Virus record (IMG/VR): IMGVR_UViG_3300045988_134226
Source: a virus
Strand: one strand, 5' to 3'
Length of the DNA stretch: 60,175 nt
In this document: in pieces, positions 8,684 through 55,399 of the stretch
Position numbering within the stretch: position 1 is the first letter of the stretch
Layout of the letters: every line of letters begins with the position of its first letter
Made by a program: the position numbers and the translations under genes
The notes under the pieces: generated by a model
What the model was told of the DNA's origin: nothing
Database searches by the model: none
What the model saw: only the letters and a program-made list of their open reading frames with translations

Positions 8684-8719
8684 AAAAGAGGGGCTATCAA
8701 TTAAGATAGCCCCTTTGTT
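8684..8719. terminator. Bidirectional intrinsic terminator between convergent genes
   Basis: Stem AGGGGCTATC / GATAGCCCCT (8689-8698 / 8705-8714). An A7 run lies upstream and TTTGTT downstream. Confidence 0.8.
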
Positions 8720-10793: not shown

Positions 10794-13433
10794 TTAATAT
10801 TCATAGACACAACGCAAAACTACATCGTTTCGCTCGTCTTTATCGTTGTTGAAACTTCCTTTGATACAATTATCGTGAATATAAATACTCTTGATAATAC
10901 GGCGTTCTGTGTCAACATCATTTACATTACTGCCCATATATCTCGGAATATCACAATAGAACGCTTTACCGCCCCAAGTTCCGCCTGTCGGGTTGTGCTT
11001 CGGTATCATTGTTGTAACAAAGTCGCTGTCGTTTGCTTTCTTTGTGTCTTTGTCGTAATCACTCCAAAGTAAAAGCCAACCGTTACGGCACTCGGATAAC
11101 TTCTTTGACGGTGTAACTGTCTGCGGTGTGCTATTAGGACTTGACATATAAGCCGCTCCTGTCCAAAGCGGTGCAGGTGACGCTTCAAATATAGCTTTCC
11201 AATCTCGCCAAGTACCATTATCAACATAGCCTGTGTAAACACTACCTCTACCGCCAAACGCCATTACCCAACCGTACTTTGCTGAACCTGTCTTATGTAC
11301 CATAAAACGGAACGACTCAATACTGTTCGGGTTATTTGTTGTGCCGATTGAAGCATAAGCAGTTGTCATTCCTGAACCAAGAGCCTTAATTTTTGCAACA
11401 ACATCTTGATTAGCCCAACTAACCTCTACATCACCGTCGTCCGCTGTCATTTGCAACGATTTAGCAATATAAGCGGAATTATGATTGTGATTTGTGTTTG
11501 ACTTACCTGCAAGTGCTGTATTGATAACCTTGTTTTGTACGGGGTTGGTACTTGAAGCACTCAACGCTGTATCAACGGTTGTCTTGTTTGCACCTGTTGC
11601 AATGCCGTTAAGTTTTGTTTTATCCTCTTTACTCATAAAGCCGTTTGCAGTAGTTGAAGCGGCACTATGGGTATGTCCTGTATTGGCTTTACCGCTTAAC
11701 GCTGTTGCAAGCCCTGTCACATCACTTTGAGCGTGTGTATGTGCTGTCGGTGCCATACTTGTAGGTTTATCCGACAAATCGTTATAACTGCCTGATGTGG
11801 CTACATCTGCAAGCCCTGTAATCATACTTGCAGGGTGTGAGGTCGGGTGAGTGTATTTATTCGCACCTGTCGCAATTCCTGCAAGTTTGGTCTTTTCGTT
11901 AGTTGTATAATCGTTTGTTGAAAGTCCTTTACCTGAAACCTTGTCAACCTTATTACCCAAAGCCGAATTTACAGTTTTGTTTTGAACAGGATTTGTGCTT
12001 GTGCTTGACATTGCGGTGTCAACTACTGTTTTATTTGCTCCTGTGGCAATTCCGCTCAATTTTGTTCTTTCGTCAGCCGTCATAATCTTTTTAGCGGTTG
12101 TTTCCGAAACATCATCAAGTGAATGTGTGTGACTTGCGGAAGCCTTACCGCTCAAAGCCGTGTCAAGACCTGTGATGTCGCTTGTAGCGTGAGTGTGTGA
12201 AGCGTTAGCCTTATTGCCTAATGCTGTTGCAAGTCCTGTTATATCGCTCTGTGCGTGGCTGTGAGTAGCGTTTGCTTTGCCACTTAAAGCGGTTGATAAG
12301 CCTGTAATATCGCCTTGTGCGTGAGTGTGTGTGCTGTCTGCCTTGCCTGCTACTTCCGTTTCAAGTGCTTCAACATCATCATTTGTCGCATACTGTGAGT
12401 GAGTATGATTTGCGTCTGCTTTTCCTGCAAGCTGTGAAGCTGTTGCAAAGTATGTAGTATCGTGACCGTCAAGCATATCTGCGTCAAGTCCGCTGTTTTG
12501 ACCGTCAACAGTCTTTAACTTTGTCAATATCTCGCTTGCTGTGATTACTGCACCGCTCTCGCCTTTGTCGCCTTTCTCACCTTTGTCACCCTTGTCGCCT
12601 TTATCGCCCTTTGCTCCTTTAAGGCTTGCTACCCAATCGGCTTGTGTTCCAACAAAGCCATTATCAAGGGCAATTTGATAAGCACTTTTACCGTCTTGAC
12701 CGTCTGCACCTGTTGCACCTGTGTCACCCTTAACGCCCTGAATACCTTGTATTCCTTGTTCGCCTTGCTCACCTTTGTCGCCCTTGTCACCTTTTGCACC
12801 TTTTAGGCTTGCAAGTTGTTCCGCTGTAAAATCGTCATAAGTGAATGGGTCGCCCTTATCGCCCTTATCGCCTTTGTCACCTTTTGCACCGTCTACACCG
12901 TTAGTGCCGTCTATACCATTAGTGCCGTCTATACCATTAGTGCCGTTTGCACCGTCAGCGCCCTTGATAATTACAGGGGCAGGGTTAGCAAGTCCTTTGT
13001 TGTTGCTCCAAGACAAAACGCCGTCACTTGATACGCTCGGTGTAAAGGTTGCACCGTCCTCACCGTCTGCTCCTGCTGTGCCATTATCCCAAAGTGATAC
13101 CTTTTCGGCTGTGATACTGTCAAGCACGGATTTGTTTGTATGATTGTGTAAGTCAGTTGTATTTGCTTTACCGTTAATATCTGCTTGCAATTCGTCAATT
13201 TTAGCAGATAAAACCTTTCCCGCTCTTTTGTACTGTATTTCATCAGTTGAACCAACCCAATAGTGAACATCACTAAAACCTGAGCCGTCAGTATTGTATA
13301 CCATTCCTACAAGATTACCGCTTGTGTATTCACTTTCGGTGATTTCTATGTAATATTCATTTGTGATTGTTGTAGCACTTGAAATTAATTCAATAACTTC
13401 GAGATTGGTATTAAGATGTGCATAATACTTCAT
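10794..13433 (-). CDS. Tail fibre with collagen-like G-X-Y tracts and repeated HxH motifs
   Basis: 879 aa. Three Gly-X-Y blocks (GADGANGTNGIDGTNGIDGTNGVDGAKGDKGDKGDKGD..), eight HxH motifs in roughly 22-aa repeats (..HTHAQGDITGLSTALSGKANAT..) and a globular C-terminus. Confidence 0.85.
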   Translation of the reverse strand: MKYYAHLNTNLEVIELISSATTITNEYYIEITESEYTSGNLVGMVYNTDGSGFSDVHYWVGSTDEIQYKRAGKVLSAKIDELQADINGKANTTDLHNHTNKSVLDSITAEKVSLWDNGTAGADGEDGATFTPSVSSDGVLSWSNNKGLANPAPVIIKGADGANGTNGIDGTNGIDGTNGVDGAKGDKGDKGDKGDPFTYDDFTAEQLASLKGAKGDKGDKGEQGEQGIQGIQGVKGDTGATGADGQDGKSAYQIALDNGFVGTQADWVASLKGAKGDKGDKGDKGEKGDKGESGAVITASEILTKLKTVDGQNSGLDADMLDGHDTTYFATASQLAGKADANHTHSQYATNDDVEALETEVAGKADSTHTHAQGDITGLSTALSGKANATHSHAQSDITGLATALGNKANASHTHATSDITGLDTALSGKASASHTHSLDDVSETTAKKIMTADERTKLSGIATGANKTVVDTAMSSTSTNPVQNKTVNSALGNKVDKVSGKGLSTNDYTTNEKTKLAGIATGANKYTHPTSHPASMITGLADVATSGSYNDLSDKPTSMAPTAHTHAQSDVTGLATALSGKANTGHTHSAASTTANGFMSKEDKTKLNGIATGANKTTVDTALSASSTNPVQNKVINTALAGKSNTNHNHNSAYIAKSLQMTADDGDVEVSWANQDVVAKIKALGSGMTTAYASIGTTNNPNSIESFRFMVHKTGSAKYGWVMAFGGRGSVYTGYVDNGTWRDWKAIFEASPAPLWTGAAYMSSPNSTPQTVTPSKKLSECRNGWLLLWSDYDKDTKKANDSDFVTTMIPKHNPTGGTWGGKAFYCDIPRYMGSNVNDVDTERRIIKSIYIHDNCIKGSFNNDKDERNDVVLRCVYEY
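12540..12960 (-). repeat. Coding tandem repeats (9-bp and 18-bp units) encoding collagen-like tracts
   Basis: For example, accattagtgccgtctat occurs twice in tandem with a degenerate flanking copy near 12897-12950, and ggcgacaa/ggtgacaa 9-mers occur at 12550-12610 and 12770-12880. Confidence 0.85.
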
Positions 13434-13530: not shown

Positions 13531-13552
13531 AACACGCCGATTAAGGCGTGTT
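13531..13552 (-). terminator. Intrinsic terminator between the two fibre genes
   Basis: Minus-strand AACACGCC-UUAAUC-GGCGUGUU followed by UUGUAUUUG. Confidence 0.65.
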
Positions 13553-17409: not shown

Positions 17410-17448
17410 TGTGTCACCTCATAAAAATAACCGTGATTTTACACACGG

Positions 17449-18357
17449 TTAAAATACTTTTATTTTAGTTGTTGCTTCGCCCTCATTAAATGTATGCTCG
17501 CCACTTCTTATACGATATTTGCCGTCTTTTGCGTTTATGCTTTTTAGCTTGATTATTCCGCCTGTTGTCATTCTGTGTTGGAGCAACATTTCTATCTCAT
17601 AGCCTTTGATTGTTTCCTTATACTTTTCGGCTGTAATTTCTTCCTCGTATTCGGTTGGTGTGTTAATCATTCCTGTGCTTTCTTCAACCGTGAAATTAAG
17701 GTTATCGCCAACCTTTAAATGTCGGGCGTAAATCTTGCCCTTATTCACATATACGGATATACCGCATACATCAGCATAGGTTTTAATGTTTTCGTACAAA
17801 TCACCGTCAACCTTTTGTTCGTCCTTATATGTGAAATCTCGCTTTATCTTAAACACCGCTATCGGTGTACCTGTCTTTTTTAGTAAGTCTTTTAAAATTT
17901 TGCTTGCCTTTGTTCCCTTTTTGTAGGTCTTTTCTTTTAGCTTTTTCGTCTTAATTCTATCTAAACATTTGATAGTTGTTTTTCGGTCCGCACCCTCATA
18001 AGCTGTTTTTCTTTTCGATACATAGCCTTTGAATATAACTCCTGTATCACCTTTAAAGCCTGCTTCAATAGTAATTGAACAGTTTTTCTTAAATCGGTTT
18101 ATTGTTGTAGTTGAAAGGTTATATATTGTAATCTCTGCTTCGTTAGCTTCCATATCATCATCAAAAGGCACGCTAAATTCCAAATCTAAATCATTTGAAT
18201 TTACAACTGCGCCATTGCAACGGATAATAGCAACGCTACCAAATACACCTTTAGGCATATCGGTATAAAAAGTGTCATTCCAACCTTTCATAGCCTTTGC
18301 CATTTTCGATACATCACTATTAGATTTAACATTTATAATTTGTGATTTATTACTCAT
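17449..18357 (-). CDS. Baseplate hub protein (XkdQ / late-control-D-like)
   Basis: The track ORF extends to 18486, across a promoter and hairpins. ATG at 18357 (MSNKSQ..) has SD AAAGGTGG. Confidence 0.7.
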   Translation of the reverse strand: MSNKSQIINVKSNSDVSKMAKAMKGWNDTFYTDMPKGVFGSVAIIRCNGAVVNSNDLDLEFSVPFDDDMEANEAEITIYNLSTTTINRFKKNCSITIEAGFKGDTGVIFKGYVSKRKTAYEGADRKTTIKCLDRIKTKKLKEKTYKKGTKASKILKDLLKKTGTPIAVFKIKRDFTYKDEQKVDGDLYENIKTYADVCGISVYVNKGKIYARHLKVGDNLNFTVEESTGMINTPTEYEEEITAEKYKETIKGYEIEMLLQHRMTTGGIIKLKSINAKDGKYRIRSGEHTFNEGEATTKIKVF

Positions 18358-18373
18358 ATAACCACCTTTAAAC

Positions 18374-18414
18374 GACAAACACCGCAAGGGATATTTGCCC
18401 TCACGGTGTTTGTC
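18374..18414 (-). terminator. Long leader hairpin, terminator-like with a weak U tract
   Basis: GACAAACACCG..(internal GAGGG/CCCUU)..CGGUGUUUGUC followed by GUUUAAAGG. A second hairpin GUAGGG-AUUGA-CCCUAC lies at 18434..18450. Confidence 0.45.
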
Positions 18415-18457
18415 AATTTCAAATTTACGGAGTGTAGGGTCAATCCCTACATACAAT

Positions 18458-18486
18458 ATTATAGCAGAATAACTTTTTGATGTCAA
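18458..18486 (-). promoter_or_regulatory. Consensus promoter P18 inside the tail/baseplate module
   Basis: On the minus strand: TTGACA (18481-18486), 17 nt, TATAAT (18458-18463), followed by ATT. The -35 starts 6 nt after the upstream stop. Confidence 0.65.
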
Positions 18487-25534: not shown

Positions 25535-25558
25535 AAGCACCCTAATCAAAGGGTGCTT
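25535..25558 (-). terminator. Hairpin terminator between the chaperone genes and the tape measure
   Basis: AAGCACCC-UUUGAUUA-GGGUGCUU followed by UUUAC. The plus-strand reading is followed by AATTTTTT. Confidence 0.5.
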
Positions 25559-39544: not shown

Positions 39545-39607
39545 TAGCAACACTCCTAAATGTTATTAGAAGTTGTCACCTGCACCATTTACCCCTAAAT
39601 GTGAGCA

Positions 39608-39643
39608 TAGAAAAAGCCGTACCGTTAATACGATACGACTTTT
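39608..39643 (-). terminator. Intrinsic terminator in the leader of the packaging operon
   Basis: Minus-strand AAAAGUCGUAUCG-UAUUAA-CGGUACGGCUUUU (two G.U pairs) followed by UCUAUG. A small upstream hairpin GUGUAAA/UUUACAC lies at 39668-39687. Confidence 0.7.
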
Positions 39644-39693
39644 CCACAAAAGGTATAAATTTTAATGGTGTAAAGCTATTTTTACACAATAAT

Positions 39694-39722
39694 ATTATAC
39701 TACAATAATAACTTTTTTTCAA
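39694..39722 (-). promoter_or_regulatory. Near-consensus promoter P39
   Basis: On the minus strand: TTGAAA (39717-22), 17 nt, TATAAT (39694-99), then ATT. The -35 starts 6 nt after the stop of the regulator gene. Confidence 0.7.
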
Positions 39723-39728
39723 GTATTT

Positions 39729-40142
39729 TTATAATTTTGTGACATATTCACTTAAAACAGTATTTATTTTCCTGTAAACTCGGAATACTTTGTTTTCGTT
39801 CCAACTTAATTCCTTGCCTACACGCTTCCACGACAAGCCATAAAAAAACCTGTATTTAATCAAAAGTATTTCATTTTCTGTGAGGTTGCATTCTTTCATC
39901 ATTGTTACAATTTCTTGTCGGCAATGAAATTTTTGTTTTTCAATCTCGTAACGCTCATTTGTTAGTTTTTCCTTTTTTTCTACAAGCTTATCAACAATGC
40001 TTTCCGTTCCACCGTTTCCTTTTGGCATACCTGATAAGTCTTGCACTTTAGGGCTGTATAACAAAGCGTTAATTTCCTCTATCTTTTCATCAATAGATTT
40101 ACCTTTTATGTAAAGTTCTAAACAAACATCAAGTTCTTTCAC
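39729..40142 (-). CDS. RinA/ArpU/DUF1492-like late-gene transcriptional regulator (sigma region-4-like)
   Basis: 137 aa. GTG start with SD AGGAGGG. Contains ..SPKVQDLSGMPKGNGG.. and ..LIKYRFFYGLSWKRVGKEL... Lies immediately upstream of the packaging operon. Confidence 0.65.
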   Translation of the reverse strand: MKELDVCLELYIKGKSIDEKIEEINALLYSPKVQDLSGMPKGNGGTESIVDKLVEKKEKLTNERYEIEKQKFHCRQEIVTMMKECNLTENEILLIKYRFFYGLSWKRVGKELSWNENKVFRVYRKINTVLSEYVTKL

Positions 40143-46363: not shown

Positions 46364-46378
46364 TTTTGCACTTCCTTT

Positions 46379-46428
46379 AAAATAAAAGCGTACCGTTTGA
46401 AGTGTGTCGGCACTTTCAAACAATACGC
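46379..46428 (-). terminator. Intrinsic terminator in the leader of the replication gene
   Basis: GCGUA..GUUUGAAAGUG-CCGACA-CACUUCAAAC..UACGC followed by UUUUAUUUU, directly before the SD. Confidence 0.7.
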
Positions 46429-46432
46429 CTGT

Positions 46433-46484
46433 GTTGATACAATATTCTATTTTGTGTTGAACAATACCGACATATTGTATCAAC
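46433..46484. repeat. 13-bp perfect inverted repeat plus a third related box (GTTGA(T)ACAAT)
   Basis: gttgatacaatat at 46433-45 and atattgtatcaac at 46472-84. A related gttgaacaat lies at 46456-65. Confidence 0.85.
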
Positions 46485-46490
46485 GAGAAT

Positions 46491-46519
46491 ATTATACCAA
46501 AATAGTAATTATTTGTCAA
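46491..46519 (-). promoter_or_regulatory. Consensus promoter P46
   Basis: On the minus strand: TTGACA (46514-19), 17 nt, TATAAT (46491-96), then ATT. Confidence 0.7.
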
Positions 46520-52420: not shown

Positions 52421-52448
52421 ATTATACTACTTTTGTAGTATTTTTCAA
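52421..52448 (-). promoter_or_regulatory. Early promoter B with a palindromic operator
   Basis: On the minus strand: TTGAAA, 16 nt, TATAAT. The perfect palindrome ATACTAC-TTTT-GTAGTAT lies at 52424..52441. Confidence 0.7.
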
Positions 52449-52532
52449 TTCGCAAAATATACAAACATTTACAAATTGTTTTGTTAAAGTTGCACAATAT
52501 ATACAAATGCAAACAAAATGACACATCAAAGG

Positions 52533-52557
52533 CAAAAAACAAAGGGCGGTTGCCCTA
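52533..52557 (-). terminator. Intrinsic terminator after 52555..52764
   Basis: Minus-strand AGGGC-AACC-GCCCU followed by UUGUUUUUUG. Confidence 0.6.
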
Positions 52558-52764
52558 AATCAATTCAAATATCTTGCTTATGTATCTTTCAAACTCTAAA
52601 TATGTAATTAGTCCAAATTCTACGGCTATTTCTACTGACCCAAGTGCTTGAAATGCTAACGCTTTTTTATTCTCTATATCTTTTGCGTTTTTCGCTAATT
52701 CAATATCAAACGACAATCTATCTTGTATGGTGTTTCCTCTGCTGTTAATCAAAATTTGCGACAC
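52555..52764 (-). CDS. Small non-HTH protein in its own promoter-terminator unit, divergent from the repressor gene (start uncertain)
   Basis: 69 aa from a GTG embedded in GAGGTG. The alternative TTG about 12 nt downstream is better spaced from the SD. Confidence 0.5.
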   Translation of the reverse strand: MSQILINSRGNTIQDRLSFDIELAKNAKDIENKKALAFQALGSVEIAVEFGLITYLEFERYISKIFELI

Positions 52765-52803
52765 CTCGTTATCATTACAATAATATTGCTAACTTTCGTT
52801 ATC

Positions 52804-52832
52804 ATTATACTACTATAATTATTTTTAATCAA
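52804..52832 (-). promoter_or_regulatory. Promoter P52.8, flanked or overlapped by 11-bp direct repeats
   Basis: On the minus strand: TTGATT, 17 nt, TATAAT. Direct repeats cgttatcatta lie at 52767-77 and 52797-807, 30 bp apart. The second overlaps the -10. Confidence 0.6.
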
Positions 52833-52905
52833 TCGGCAATTTTCACAAAATATAATCACAATGTTACATATATGTTTCATAATTCTACACAATGTAAACA
52901 AAGTG

Positions 52906-53821: not shown

Positions 53822-55399
53822 TTGAAGTCGAAAAACAAGCCATTCATACGGAAAGCCGTTGCTTACGCTCGGTTTTCATCAAACAATCAGCGTGAGGAAA
53901 GTATAGACGCACAATTAAGGGCTATAAGCGACTATTGTGAGCGTGAGAATATTCAATTAGTAGATATATATTCAGATGAAGCACAATCCGCTAAAACCGA
54001 CAACAGGGACGATTTTAAGAATATGACAGACGCAATATTCAAAGGCAATTATGATATTGACGCTGTATTAGTCCATAAGTTTAACCGTTTTGCTCGTAAC
54101 AAGTATGATAGTGCGTTGTATAAGAAGCGTTTAAGAGATATAGGCATAAAGGTTGTGTCCGTTACTCAACCGATAGACGATAGCCCCGAGGGGCGTATTC
54201 TCGAAAGCCTTATTGAAGCAATGGACGAATACTATTCGGAAAACCTTGCTTTAGAGGTCAAAAAGGGAATGTTAGAAAACGCCTTGAAAGGTAAACATAC
54301 AGGTGGTGGCAAACTGCTCGGACTGTCCGTTGATGATGAGGGTTATTATTATCCTGACGAAAACGCACCGATTATTTATCGAATATTTAAGGAATATGCG
54401 GACGGCGTACCAAAGACGCAAATTGTTGAACGCTTAAACCGTGAGGGCTACCGCAACCAATACGGCAGGAAGTTCAACACTCGCACCATTACCGATTTAT
54501 TGCAAAATGAAAAGTATATAGGTAATTTCATTTATAATCATACTCAATCGCAAGTTATCCGTTTAGAGGGTATAATCAAAAATCCAATAGTTGATGAGGA
54601 TTTATGGGAACGAGTGCAAAAATTGCGGAAAGACGCAAACAAGCCAAAACACCGAAAAAGAAAATATCTAATGACAGGTAAATTGCGTTGCGGTGTTTGC
54701 GGATTTACTTATTGCGGAAGCGGTGCAAAAAAGAAAAACAAGAACGGAGATATGTCCGCTTATTATAAATGTCAAGGCAAAATTAAAAACAAGAACGGCT
54801 GTACTAACCCGTCCTTGAACAAAGATTATTACGAAAAACTTGTTATTGATACTATAACAAAAAGCGTCCTGACAGACAACGCCATTGATGAAATAGCGGT
54901 TAGTGTGACAACTCAACTTGAAAGAGAAAGAAAAAAGCCACTAATACCAACGGCAAAATTAAGAAATCAACTCGACAAAGTGAAAGATAAACAAGCAAGG
55001 CTAATGGAGTTATACCTTGACGGTGGTATGGAAAGAAAGGTACTTGATGAAAAGAACAACGCATTAAAAGAAGAAAGAAAACACATTGAAGAACAAATAG
55101 AAAGAAATTTATATTTAGAGCAATCAAACATTCTTGATGTTCAAGATATAAAAAATATGATATTAGAGTTTCGTGAGGAATTAAAAAATAACCCTGACTT
55201 TGATTTTGCACAAGTAGTATTTAATACTTTTGTTGACAGTATCGTTGTTTACCCCGATACCCTTGAAGTTAATTTAAGGGTGGACTTTTCCACCCTCGGG
55301 GGTGATAAGAGGAAAAACAGGGGGGCAAGCCACCCAATAAACCCCCTTTTGATAAACAAATCTGTCAAACGGAAAACGCACCAACAACCAACAAATTAA
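53822..55399 (+). CDS. int: Large serine recombinase (integrase)
   Basis: 525 aa. Resolvase catalytic domain AVAYARFSSNNQ, a recombinase domain, a zinc ribbon CGVCG...YYKCQG and a C-terminal coiled coil. Confidence 0.9.
   Translation: MKSKNKPFIRKAVAYARFSSNNQREESIDAQLRAISDYCERENIQLVDIYSDEAQSAKTDNRDDFKNMTDAIFKGNYDIDAVLVHKFNRFARNKYDSALYKKRLRDIGIKVVSVTQPIDDSPEGRILESLIEAMDEYYSENLALEVKKGMLENALKGKHTGGGKLLGLSVDDEGYYYPDENAPIIYRIFKEYADGVPKTQIVERLNREGYRNQYGRKFNTRTITDLLQNEKYIGNFIYNHTQSQVIRLEGIIKNPIVDEDLWERVQKLRKDANKPKHRKRKYLMTGKLRCGVCGFTYCGSGAKKKNKNGDMSAYYKCQGKIKNKNGCTNPSLNKDYYEKLVIDTITKSVLTDNAIDEIAVSVTTQLERERKKPLIPTAKLRNQLDKVKDKQARLMELYLDGGMERKVLDEKNNALKEERKHIEEQIERNLYLEQSNILDVQDIKNMILEFREELKNNPDFDFAQVVFNTFVDSIVVYPDTLEVNLRVDFSTLGGDKRKNRGASHPINPLLINKSVKRKTHQQPTN

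Follow-up and report, generated by a model that had tools for sequence, protein, structure and literature searches.

Promoter-then-terminator modules kept beside a sigma-like regulator gene in a phage family: a possible case of antitermination

In a prophage-bearing stretch of viral DNA (IMG/VR record IMGVR_UViG_3300045988_134226; 60,175 nucleotides, hereafter the window), four near-consensus promoters are each followed by a structured leader and a terminator-like hairpin in front of a major gene block. One of them, P39, lies directly downstream of the gene for a regulator of the Ltr superfamily, and the order of regulator gene, promoter, leader, and terminator recurs across a phage family. 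The layout and its significance, the conservation of the modules, the gene order, and the sharing of a promoter box are features of the sequences themselves, and the sigma-4-like fold of the regulator is that of a structural model. The interpretation of this architecture, which is conserved across the phage family, as antitermination control is plausible and partly supported by the sequence comparisons described here. The promoters and the regulator gene are as follows.

46491-46519, minus strand: P46, a sigma-A-type promoter (12/12) with an extended -10 element (TGn) and without an AAAGT box, TTGACA-AATAATTACTATTTTGG-TATAAT
39729-40142, minus strand: regulator gene encoding 137 amino acids (aa; pI 8.65), with an N-terminal helical hairpin and a C-terminal sigma-70 region-4-like helix-turn-helix (HTH)
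39694-39722, minus strand: P39, a promoter (11/12) with the family box, TTGAAA-AAAAGTTATTATTGTAG-TATAAT, 6 nucleotides (nt) past the regulator stop codon
32014-32042, minus strand: P32, a promoter (12/12) with the AAAGTTATT box, TTGACA-AATGAAAGTTATTTTAG-TATAAT
18458-18486, minus strand: P18, a promoter (12/12) with an extended -10 element and the AAAGTTATT box, TTGACA-TCAAAAAGTTATTCTGC-TATAAT

Across the window, exactly four sites fit the pattern TTGAMA-N17-TATAAT, and each of them is on the minus strand. The chance expectation is a mean of 0.07 matches per shuffle, and none of 100 shuffles reaches four. These matches coincide exactly with the promoters that a first-pass annotation had described as TTGA(C/A)A, 17 nt, and TATAAT followed by ATT, and ATT directly follows the -10 hexamer in all four. 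A generic promoter scan scores P18, P32, and P46 at 12/12 and P39 at 11/12, and ranks them as the best promoter-like sites of their 20-kb segments. The -35 hexamer begins 6 nt past the upstream stop codon in both P39 and P18, as annotated, and 36 nt past it in P46; in P32 the gap is 23 nt rather than the 24 nt first given. The stop codon before P18 is that of the baseplate-plug gene (Pam3 gp18-like). The gene before P46 (46556-47098) encodes 180 aa, and its HTH-type matches are all sub-threshold (PHROG 3, "transcriptional repressor", E-value 6e-7).

Downstream of each promoter, the predicted leader RNA begins with a hairpin at approximately +1 and ends in a long hairpin rich in G+C with U residues behind it (4/4 leaders). 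The predicted lengths are ~105 nt for P46, ~77 nt for P39, ~196 nt for P32, and ~80 nt for P18.

46433-46484, minus strand: 5' hairpin of the P46 leader, 13-bp stem GUUGAUACAAUAU...AUAUUGUAUCAAC, starting at ~+1
46378-46430, minus strand: T46, intrinsic terminator, 17-bp stem with a folding free energy (dG) of ~-22 kcal/mol, then UUUUAUUUU
39668-39687, minus strand: 5' hairpin of the P39 leader, GUGUAAA-AAUAGC-UUUACAC
39611-39643, minus strand: T39, intrinsic terminator, AAAAGUCGUAUCG-UAUUAA-CGGUACGGCUUUUU
31843-32007, minus strand: structured leader of P32, ~165 nt, four hairpins
31812-31842, minus strand: T32, intrinsic terminator, AAAAGACACUUC-UAUAU-GGAGUGUCUUUUUU, 12-bp stem, then UUUUUUAUAU
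18433-18451, minus strand: 5' hairpin of the P18 leader, UGUAGGG-AUUGA-CCCUACA
18371-18414, minus strand: T18 hairpin, 17-18-bp stem, inner stem dG ~-19 kcal/mol in our own scan, tail GUUUAAAGG

Our own terminator scan required a single hairpin with dG <= -12 kcal/mol and five or more T within the next 8 nt; on the minus strand it identifies 23 hairpin-plus-U sites, and T46, T39, T32, and T18 are among them. At this base rate, the joint chance of finding a strong hairpin with a U tract 75-200 nt after each of the four promoters is ~3e-6. All four hairpins that had been placed behind the promoters are found; a simple built-in terminator scan, with its limits on loop and bulge, missed every one of them. 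The four leaders fold much more stably than shuffled sequence, with z-scores of -5.7, -6.9, -6.1, and -4.8. By sequence, T46, T39, and T32 are textbook intrinsic terminators, and T18 has a long stem but a weak tail, in which GUUU alone follows the stem as the weakest U tract of the four. The T39 stem comprises 13 bp including G.U pairs and is followed by UUUUUC, with an ACCUUUU motif just before it at 39648-39654. In the P32 leader (z-score -4.8), the loop of the second hairpin, yCCUUUC, is conserved, while its stem varies among phages yet stays paired. The ribosome-binding sites (RBS) of the replisome-organizer gene (AAAGGAAG) and of the baseplate-hub gene directly follow T46 and T18, respectively, which leaves no room for another promoter, so that read-through of these two hairpins would be obligatory. 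The four leaders share neither sequence nor a common fold, and inspection reveals no conserved short open reading frames (ORFs) in them that could serve as leader peptides. At gathering thresholds, no Rfam family matches anywhere in the window, and a search of the P32 leader in E-value mode gives chance-level matches only.

Further terminators, found by the terminator scans, lie within the late region between 8689 and 26374. The three that were annotated earlier (at 26352, 25535, and 13531) are present, and two more are added to them.

26352-26374, minus strand: late-region terminator
25535-25558, minus strand: late-region terminator
17428-17451, minus strand: late-region terminator
13531-13552, minus strand: late-region terminator
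8689-8714, minus strand: strong final terminator of the late region

The product of 39729-40142 had been proposed as a RinA/ArpU-like candidate for the controlling factor. Its gene does lie directly upstream of P39, in an order kept in 20/20 phages (see below), and the protein is not strictly RinA- or ArpU-like: sequence and model place it, as a DUF722/Alt-like protein, within the broadly defined Ltr superfamily and not among Q homologues. Its match to Pfam DUF722 (PF05263) has an E-value of 3.6e-6 and, at 27.6 bits, falls short of the 29.8-bit cut-off; the protein also weakly matches PHROG 36 and the Alt-like PHROG 2198, and shares 28% identity with Alt of phage TP901-1. Other members of the family match Sigma70_r4, Sigma70_r4_2, and DUF1492. 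In the AlphaFold model (mean pLDDT 88.7), a two-helix hairpin, tipped by the invariant loop PKxQDLSGMPKG, is followed by a three-helix domain. The C-terminal 60 residues of this model superpose on region 4 of SigD, SigE, and SigA with target-normalised TM-scores of 0.6-0.8, and no Foldseek E-value is below 0.1. The fit to SigD region 4 reaches a target-normalised TM-score of 0.75-0.81 with a root-mean-square deviation (rmsd) of ~1.9 Å, and the SigE region 4 match is a structure bound to the -35 element. Q proteins are absent from the Pfam, PHROGs, and PDB fold-search matches of the regulator, and among ~40 phage proteins compared with Pfam and PHROGs there is no Q-, N-, NusG-, or LoaP-like protein. 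Beyond a chance 13-mer pair, the region 39560-39920 contains no direct repeats of the Ltr type.

The modules are conserved in close relatives, a set of metagenomic contigs that encode 75-96% identical copies of the 39729-40142 protein. In contigs L002, L003/L004, and L009, the P46, P39, and P32 modules occupy the same positions, with promoters that are near identical and leaders that have diverged; such same-position modules are found in phages with regulators that are 75-80% identical. Within the diverged leaders, structure is retained. In L002 and L009, the 5' hairpin of the P39 leader keeps its AAUAG loop while two stem pairs change from A-U to G-C in a compensatory manner, and in relatives the top pair of T39 changes, again with compensation, from C-G to U-A. 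The layout of the P46 leader, a long 5' hairpin plus terminator, is the same in L002 and L003, and in L009 a wholly unrelated leader sequence still forms a long 5' hairpin plus terminator. The P18 module is kept in L039-L042 and L054, where its terminator is canonical (AAAAGCACUCUUGAAAAAGGGUGCUUUUUGC); phages with a hub protein of <= 61% identity lack the module, and their genes abut at this point.

A fifth module of this kind is present in L003 (14973-15095) and L004 (5046-5093), with a 12/12 promoter, TTGACA-N17-TATAAT, and a hairpin with a U tract. It precedes a GIY-YIG homing-endonuclease gene that itself directly follows a shortened terL ORF. A GIY-YIG gene also follows the P46 module in L002 and L009.

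Across the wider family, the same order is maintained. A profile search with the regulator finds 667 clusters among 1.8 billion representative proteins. Loci were located with a narrower protein alignment, the very diverse one being too divergent for a locus search, and 24 IMG/VR contigs and 2 metagenome-assembled genomes (MAGs) with regulator homologues 24-88% identical were examined. In 20 of the 20 distinct phages with this promoter type (regulators 27-88% identical), the regulator gene is followed by promoter, leader, and terminator; a terminator-before-promoter order is seen in none of these modules, and the module is missing in only the three most distant homologues (L011, L037, and L038). 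The family promoter, T(T/A)GAmAAAAAGT-N11-TAtAAT, begins 1-45 nt after the regulator stop codon (20 modules), and the family terminators have dG values of -10 to -26 kcal/mol and end 42-162 nt past the assumed start site. Several of the -35 hexamers are off consensus (TAGACA, TGGAAA, TAGTAA) with AAAAAGT retained. An extended -10 TGn is present in five modules (L026, as TGT, L028, L032, L033, and L035), three of which have a poor -35 hexamer, and promoters with this element should work without -35 contacts. The start region, AgTATTGTGaAAaAT, is conserved, and a pyrimidine motif (CCUUUC or CUUUCUUU) usually precedes the terminator. The 5' hairpin is weakly stronger than background across the family (-5.5 vs -3.6 kcal/mol). 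A TTGTGAAAAAT motif that flanks the promoter, upstream of the -35 hexamer and at ~+1, forms conserved columns family-wide and is not significant within single modules.

The pyrimidine motif (ACCUUUC or CUCUUUCUUU) stands just before the terminator in most P39-type leaders (L005, L016-L035) and resembles the 3' end of 16S rRNA. The copies in the window are at 39648-39654 and at 31966-31973, and the latter is the conserved loop of the second hairpin in the P32 leader. Neither a NusG pause site (TTNTTT) nor a boxA-like element was adopted as an identity for the motif; these fit some members of the family and not the P39 leader of the window.

The spacer motif that the first-pass annotation had seen in three of the promoters is borne out: AAAGTTATT is found in P18, P32, and P39, and P46 is without it. 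The P39 copy lies 3 nt nearer to the -35 hexamer than the copies in P32 and P18. The 3' extension of this box, the 3-4 nt after AAAGT, is common to the promoters within one phage and differs between phages: AAAGTTATT occurs three times in the window, AAAGTCG is found in the pair L024/L058, TGGAAA-rAAAGTnGC in L033/L063, and AAAAAGTT in L019/L069. This pattern suggests that the AAAGT box with its extension of 3-4 nt is a putative binding site for a co-evolving phage-encoded factor. An alternative identity for the box, an operator of the prophage repressor, is rejected. The repeats of the immunity region differ from it (TAATGATAACGA twice, and ACATTGTG-type motifs), and neither these repeats nor ATTGTGWAAWAT are enriched at the four promoters.

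A reading that would account for this architecture is antitermination of the lambda pR'-tR' type, in which the Ltr-like protein would load at the box of P39, P32, and P18; it is put forward tentatively, with a probability somewhat short of even. Host sigma-A RNA polymerase would use each promoter unaided and transcribe a short structured leader closed by an intrinsic terminator, behind which an essential block of genes for replication, packaging, head, or baseplate begins. Lysogens and early infections would yield short leader RNAs only, and transcription arriving from upstream would be halted at the same terminators. At the late stage, the Ltr-like protein (137 aa) would bind the box within or next to the -35/spacer region of P39, P32, and P18, and would stay with or modify the departing polymerase, which would then read through the leader terminator and the further terminators of the 31-kb late region. 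P46 and T46 would be passed by leakage or with a different early factor, resulting in a two-step cascade like that of lambda N then Q. We infer, then, that the promoters fire, that the hairpins terminate, and that the Ltr-like protein binds the box and confers read-through. Three features argue for control after initiation. Promoters that score 11-12/12 with a 17-bp spacer need no activator; the terminator always lies downstream of the promoter, although the opposite order would do for ending early transcription; and the regulator gene abuts the promoter. Taken jointly, they fit the lambda Q/pR'/tR' logic, in which the AAAGT box would stand where lambda has its Q-binding element. In our own scan of the minus strand, no strong terminator lies between T46 and T39, so that expression of the regulator would depend on passing T46, and T46 should be leaky or passed with the help of an earlier factor.

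Several points weigh against antitermination by the Ltr-like protein. The distance from the box to the -10 hexamer varies between 8 and 11 nt, which is awkward for a rigidly docked factor. The initial transcribed region contains no convincing -10-like pause hexamer, and the regulator is unrelated to known Q, N, or NusG-like antiterminators. P46 has no box and lies upstream of the regulator gene, and for these reasons it cannot depend on the regulator alone. Ltr, RinA, and Alt proteins have been described as activators that act on direct repeats upstream of a promoter, and no such repeats are present here. Some relatives have an AAAGT-box promoter with a small gene, and not a terminator, directly behind it. 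Hairpins after abundant structural genes are commonly partial terminators, and the internal ones alone do not call for antitermination. Finally, the case is assembled from sequence and comparative evidence. The lambda pR'-tR' logic proposed in the first-pass annotation therefore holds in part: the promoter-then-terminator layout is real and conserved, while the protein belongs to the broad Ltr superfamily and has no similarity to Q, no pause element was identified, P46 is box-less and upstream of the regulator gene, and the box of P39 stands in a different register.

Some of these points would be accommodated if the Ltr-like protein activated AAAGT-box promoters in the conventional way, or served there as a sigma-4-type appropriator, and the hairpins were partial terminators or attenuators. 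The hairpins would then bring early-operon transcription to a halt, adjust expression ratios, and make RNA ends more stable, and with initiation boosted, leakage would suffice with an unmodified elongation complex. This explanation is considered unlikely, with a real chance of being right. It agrees with the experimental description of the Ltr superfamily as activators (PMC3753634, PMC3152322, PMC13123087), with the weak -35 hexamers of many family promoters, which could need help, with the poor U tract of T18, with the AAAGT-box promoters of some relatives that have no terminator behind them, and with the placement of hairpins behind sheath- and tube-type genes, where they are typical stoichiometry devices. 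However, promoters of 11-12/12 with a 17-bp spacer need no activation, and T46, T39, and T32 look efficient. A terminator-then-promoter order would stop early transcription equally well or better, yet the promoter comes first in 20/20 modules. Moreover, unregulated leakage from consensus promoters would leave the late genes on in lysogens.

The absence of a box at P46, upstream of the regulator gene, calls for some other route at that site, and read-through could more generally come from another phage protein, a host factor, or the leader RNA acting in cis, as with HK022 put, EAR, or a conAn2-like element. The candidate proteins are the 180-aa protein with sub-threshold HTH matches encoded before P46 and unannotated small early proteins. 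An origin of this kind is improbable for the system as a whole. The hairpin at ~+1 that opens each leader and the AAUAG loop and CCUUUC/CUUUCUUU motif that P39-type leaders share family-wide before the terminator are in agreement with it, and RNA-based, bipartite antitermination is known in Gram-positive mobile elements (PMC8191782). In contrast, the four leaders have no common sequence or fold while the promoters are alike, Rfam gives no match, the early proteins tested carry no NusG-, Q-, N-, or ConAn-like annotation, and the 5' hairpin of the family stands weakly above background, at the values given above. Least probable of all is that the modules are chiefly genes for 75-200-nt small RNAs acting in trans or in cis, for example via CU-rich loops, with the downstream genes transcribed from elsewhere; a 5' hairpin plus terminator is a typical small-RNA layout, the P32 leader is long and well folded (z -4.8) with a conserved CCUUUC loop on a variable paired stem, and the terminated pR' leader of Stx phages is described as a functional small RNA (PMC7547250), but expression of the replisome-organizer and baseplate genes would go unexplained since upstream transcripts meet the same terminator, the P46 leader sequence is unconserved and is replaced in L009, and a small-RNA role is compatible with antitermination and so is no true alternative.

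Antitermination by the Ltr-like protein can be set beside several known systems. In lambda, the Q-binding element lies between the -35 and -10 hexamers. As in the lambdoid Q/pR'/tR' systems (Q-lambda, Q21, Q82), the regulator gene here is immediately upstream of a strong, probably constitutive promoter with a conserved -35/spacer element, a short terminated leader precedes the late genes, and terminators lie inside the long late operon. Unlike the lambdoid Q proteins, the regulator is sigma-4-like without sequence or fold similarity to Q, no sigma-dependent pause element is recognised, three to four loading promoters rather than one are present per genome, and the likely host is from the Gram-positive Clostridia. 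With the Ltr superfamily (RinA, ArpU, LtrA-C, and TP901-1 Alt/DUF722), the system shares a basic protein of similar size that is encoded upstream of the packaging genes and has a sigma region-4-like C-terminus, and with 80alpha and TP901-1 it shares a terminator-like hairpin between the regulator gene and terS. It differs from the published Ltr members, which bind three to four direct repeats upstream of a promoter, located past the gene or inside its 3' end, in that no repeats are present, the putative box lies inside a near-consensus promoter, and the terminator always follows the promoter. As in the conAn system of the conjugative plasmid pLS20, a mobile element of Gram-positive bacteria combines a strong promoter with a long operon that contains many intrinsic terminators; antitermination in that system serves to silence spurious transcription and allows differential expression (PMC8191782). 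One large cis-acting RNA and a processivity protein operate there from the beginning of the operon, in contrast to the several promoter-terminator modules with unrelated short leaders found here, where no homologue is recognised. Like HK022 put and Bacillus EAR, the modules place structured RNA just downstream of a promoter and before terminators, but put and EAR have defined, conserved folds, whereas the four leaders share none and have no Rfam match.

Published data on the Ltr superfamily contain parallels, which are leads and not proof. Studies of Ltr, RinA, and Alt proteins portray them as promoter activators whose binding sites are direct repeats (PMC3753634, PMC3152322, PMC13123087). In phi11/80alpha, RinA needs sequence >155 bp upstream of the mapped terS 5' end, a distance that the authors call unexplained, and a terminator lies between rinA and terS (PMC3152322); for 80alpha, these data show the order seen in the present modules. 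In the 80alpha sequence (L055, 1222-1410), an intrinsic terminator, GGGUUGGCUGAUUAUAGCCAAUCCUUUUUU, is found between the region just past rinA and the published terS 5' end. In TP901-1 (L074, 1987-2562), a terminator-like hairpin lies 10 nt before the terS RBS; the 577-nt alt-terS spacer of this phage also holds two tRNA-like genes predicted by ARAGORN. The literature searched contains no link between Ltr, RinA, or Alt proteins and antitermination.

A further repeated element lies at the end of the P32 module. The 11-mer TTCTATATGGA has exactly three copies in the window (31765-31833, minus strand), all directly upstream of the scaffold gene.

31765-31797, minus strand: copies 2 and 3 of TTCTATATGGA, with copy 3 ending 5 nt before the scaffold Shine-Dalgarno sequence GGAGG

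Copy 1 is held by the loop and upper stem of T32. Two to three copies are found in the same place in every relative and in ~16 further IMG/VR phages (L002-L010, L056-L073). Each copy lies in a hairpin loop, copy 1 being that of T32, and the stems differ among phages while the pairing is kept. As RNA, the 11-mer is self-complementary via two G.U pairs, and no Rfam family corresponds to it. The motif may be a candidate operator for post-transcriptional control of scaffold and capsid synthesis. In L056, a tRNA-Thr(UGU) gene (11407-11481) lies inside the leader upstream of the scaffold-gene motif.

The window has a G+C content of 37.6%. The lysogeny module occupies the plus strand at 52.9-55.4 kb, and the lytic genes are all on the minus strand, from ~52.8 kb down to ~0.3 kb. 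The host is likely a gut or rumen Clostridia bacterium, as pointed to by the MAG contigs (an uncultured Ruminococcus and a Clostridia MAG). No close relative was found among sequenced phages; the matches are merely short ones to terL and the methyltransferase at 65-70% identity. On the minus strand, the regulator gene (39729-40142) is followed by the ParB-methyltransferase gene, a terS-like gene, and terL. Past T39 and ahead of the start codon for the ParB-methyltransferase, at 39575-39599 on the minus strand, lies a block AGGGGTAAAT..TGCAG(G)TGAC that is kept in distant phages with the same downstream gene (L023, L026, L028, and L032). This block could be a candidate ParB site, a pac-related site, or a processing site. 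In the early control region (52421-52850, minus strand), two exact copies of TAATGATAACGA (52766-52777 and 52796-52807) come after a TTGATT-N17-TATAAT promoter; behind them lie a first gene of 69 aa, a terminator (52543-52556), and another promoter of the form TTGAAA-N16-TATAAT at 52421-52448. Its order, terminator before promoter, is the usual arrangement. Past the serine-recombinase gene (53822-55399), the segment 55990-60125 carries more minus-strand genes, including one for an N6 DNA methylase (58812-60125), and could belong to another mobile element, or form a restriction-modification locus, instead of being part of the prophage.

Virion production, lysis, and the transfer of toxins and genomic islands all depend on late-gene control in temperate Firmicutes phages, for which the current account invokes an "activator" family. 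Here, a sigma-like regulator of a kind so far regarded only as activators is tied to promoter-then-terminator modules. The conserved order of regulator, promoter, leader, and terminator points to control at the level of elongation and provides a concrete, testable model with a defined DNA box. Such control could also reconcile the RinA puzzle in the published data and, if real, would add a structurally new class of promoter-loaded antiterminators and predict abundant prophage leader RNAs in lysogens. The broadest extension is that the whole Ltr superfamily (RinA, ArpU, LtrA-C, and Alt/DUF722) consists of sigma-4 mimics that join RNA polymerase at a promoter beside their own gene, make it terminator-resistant, and have been wrongly classed as simple activators. 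This extension is doubtful. If true, it would explain both the RinA distance in 80alpha/phi11 and the intervening terminator, and the superfamily would play the part of lambda Q in Gram-positive hosts, with a fold unrelated to that of Q.

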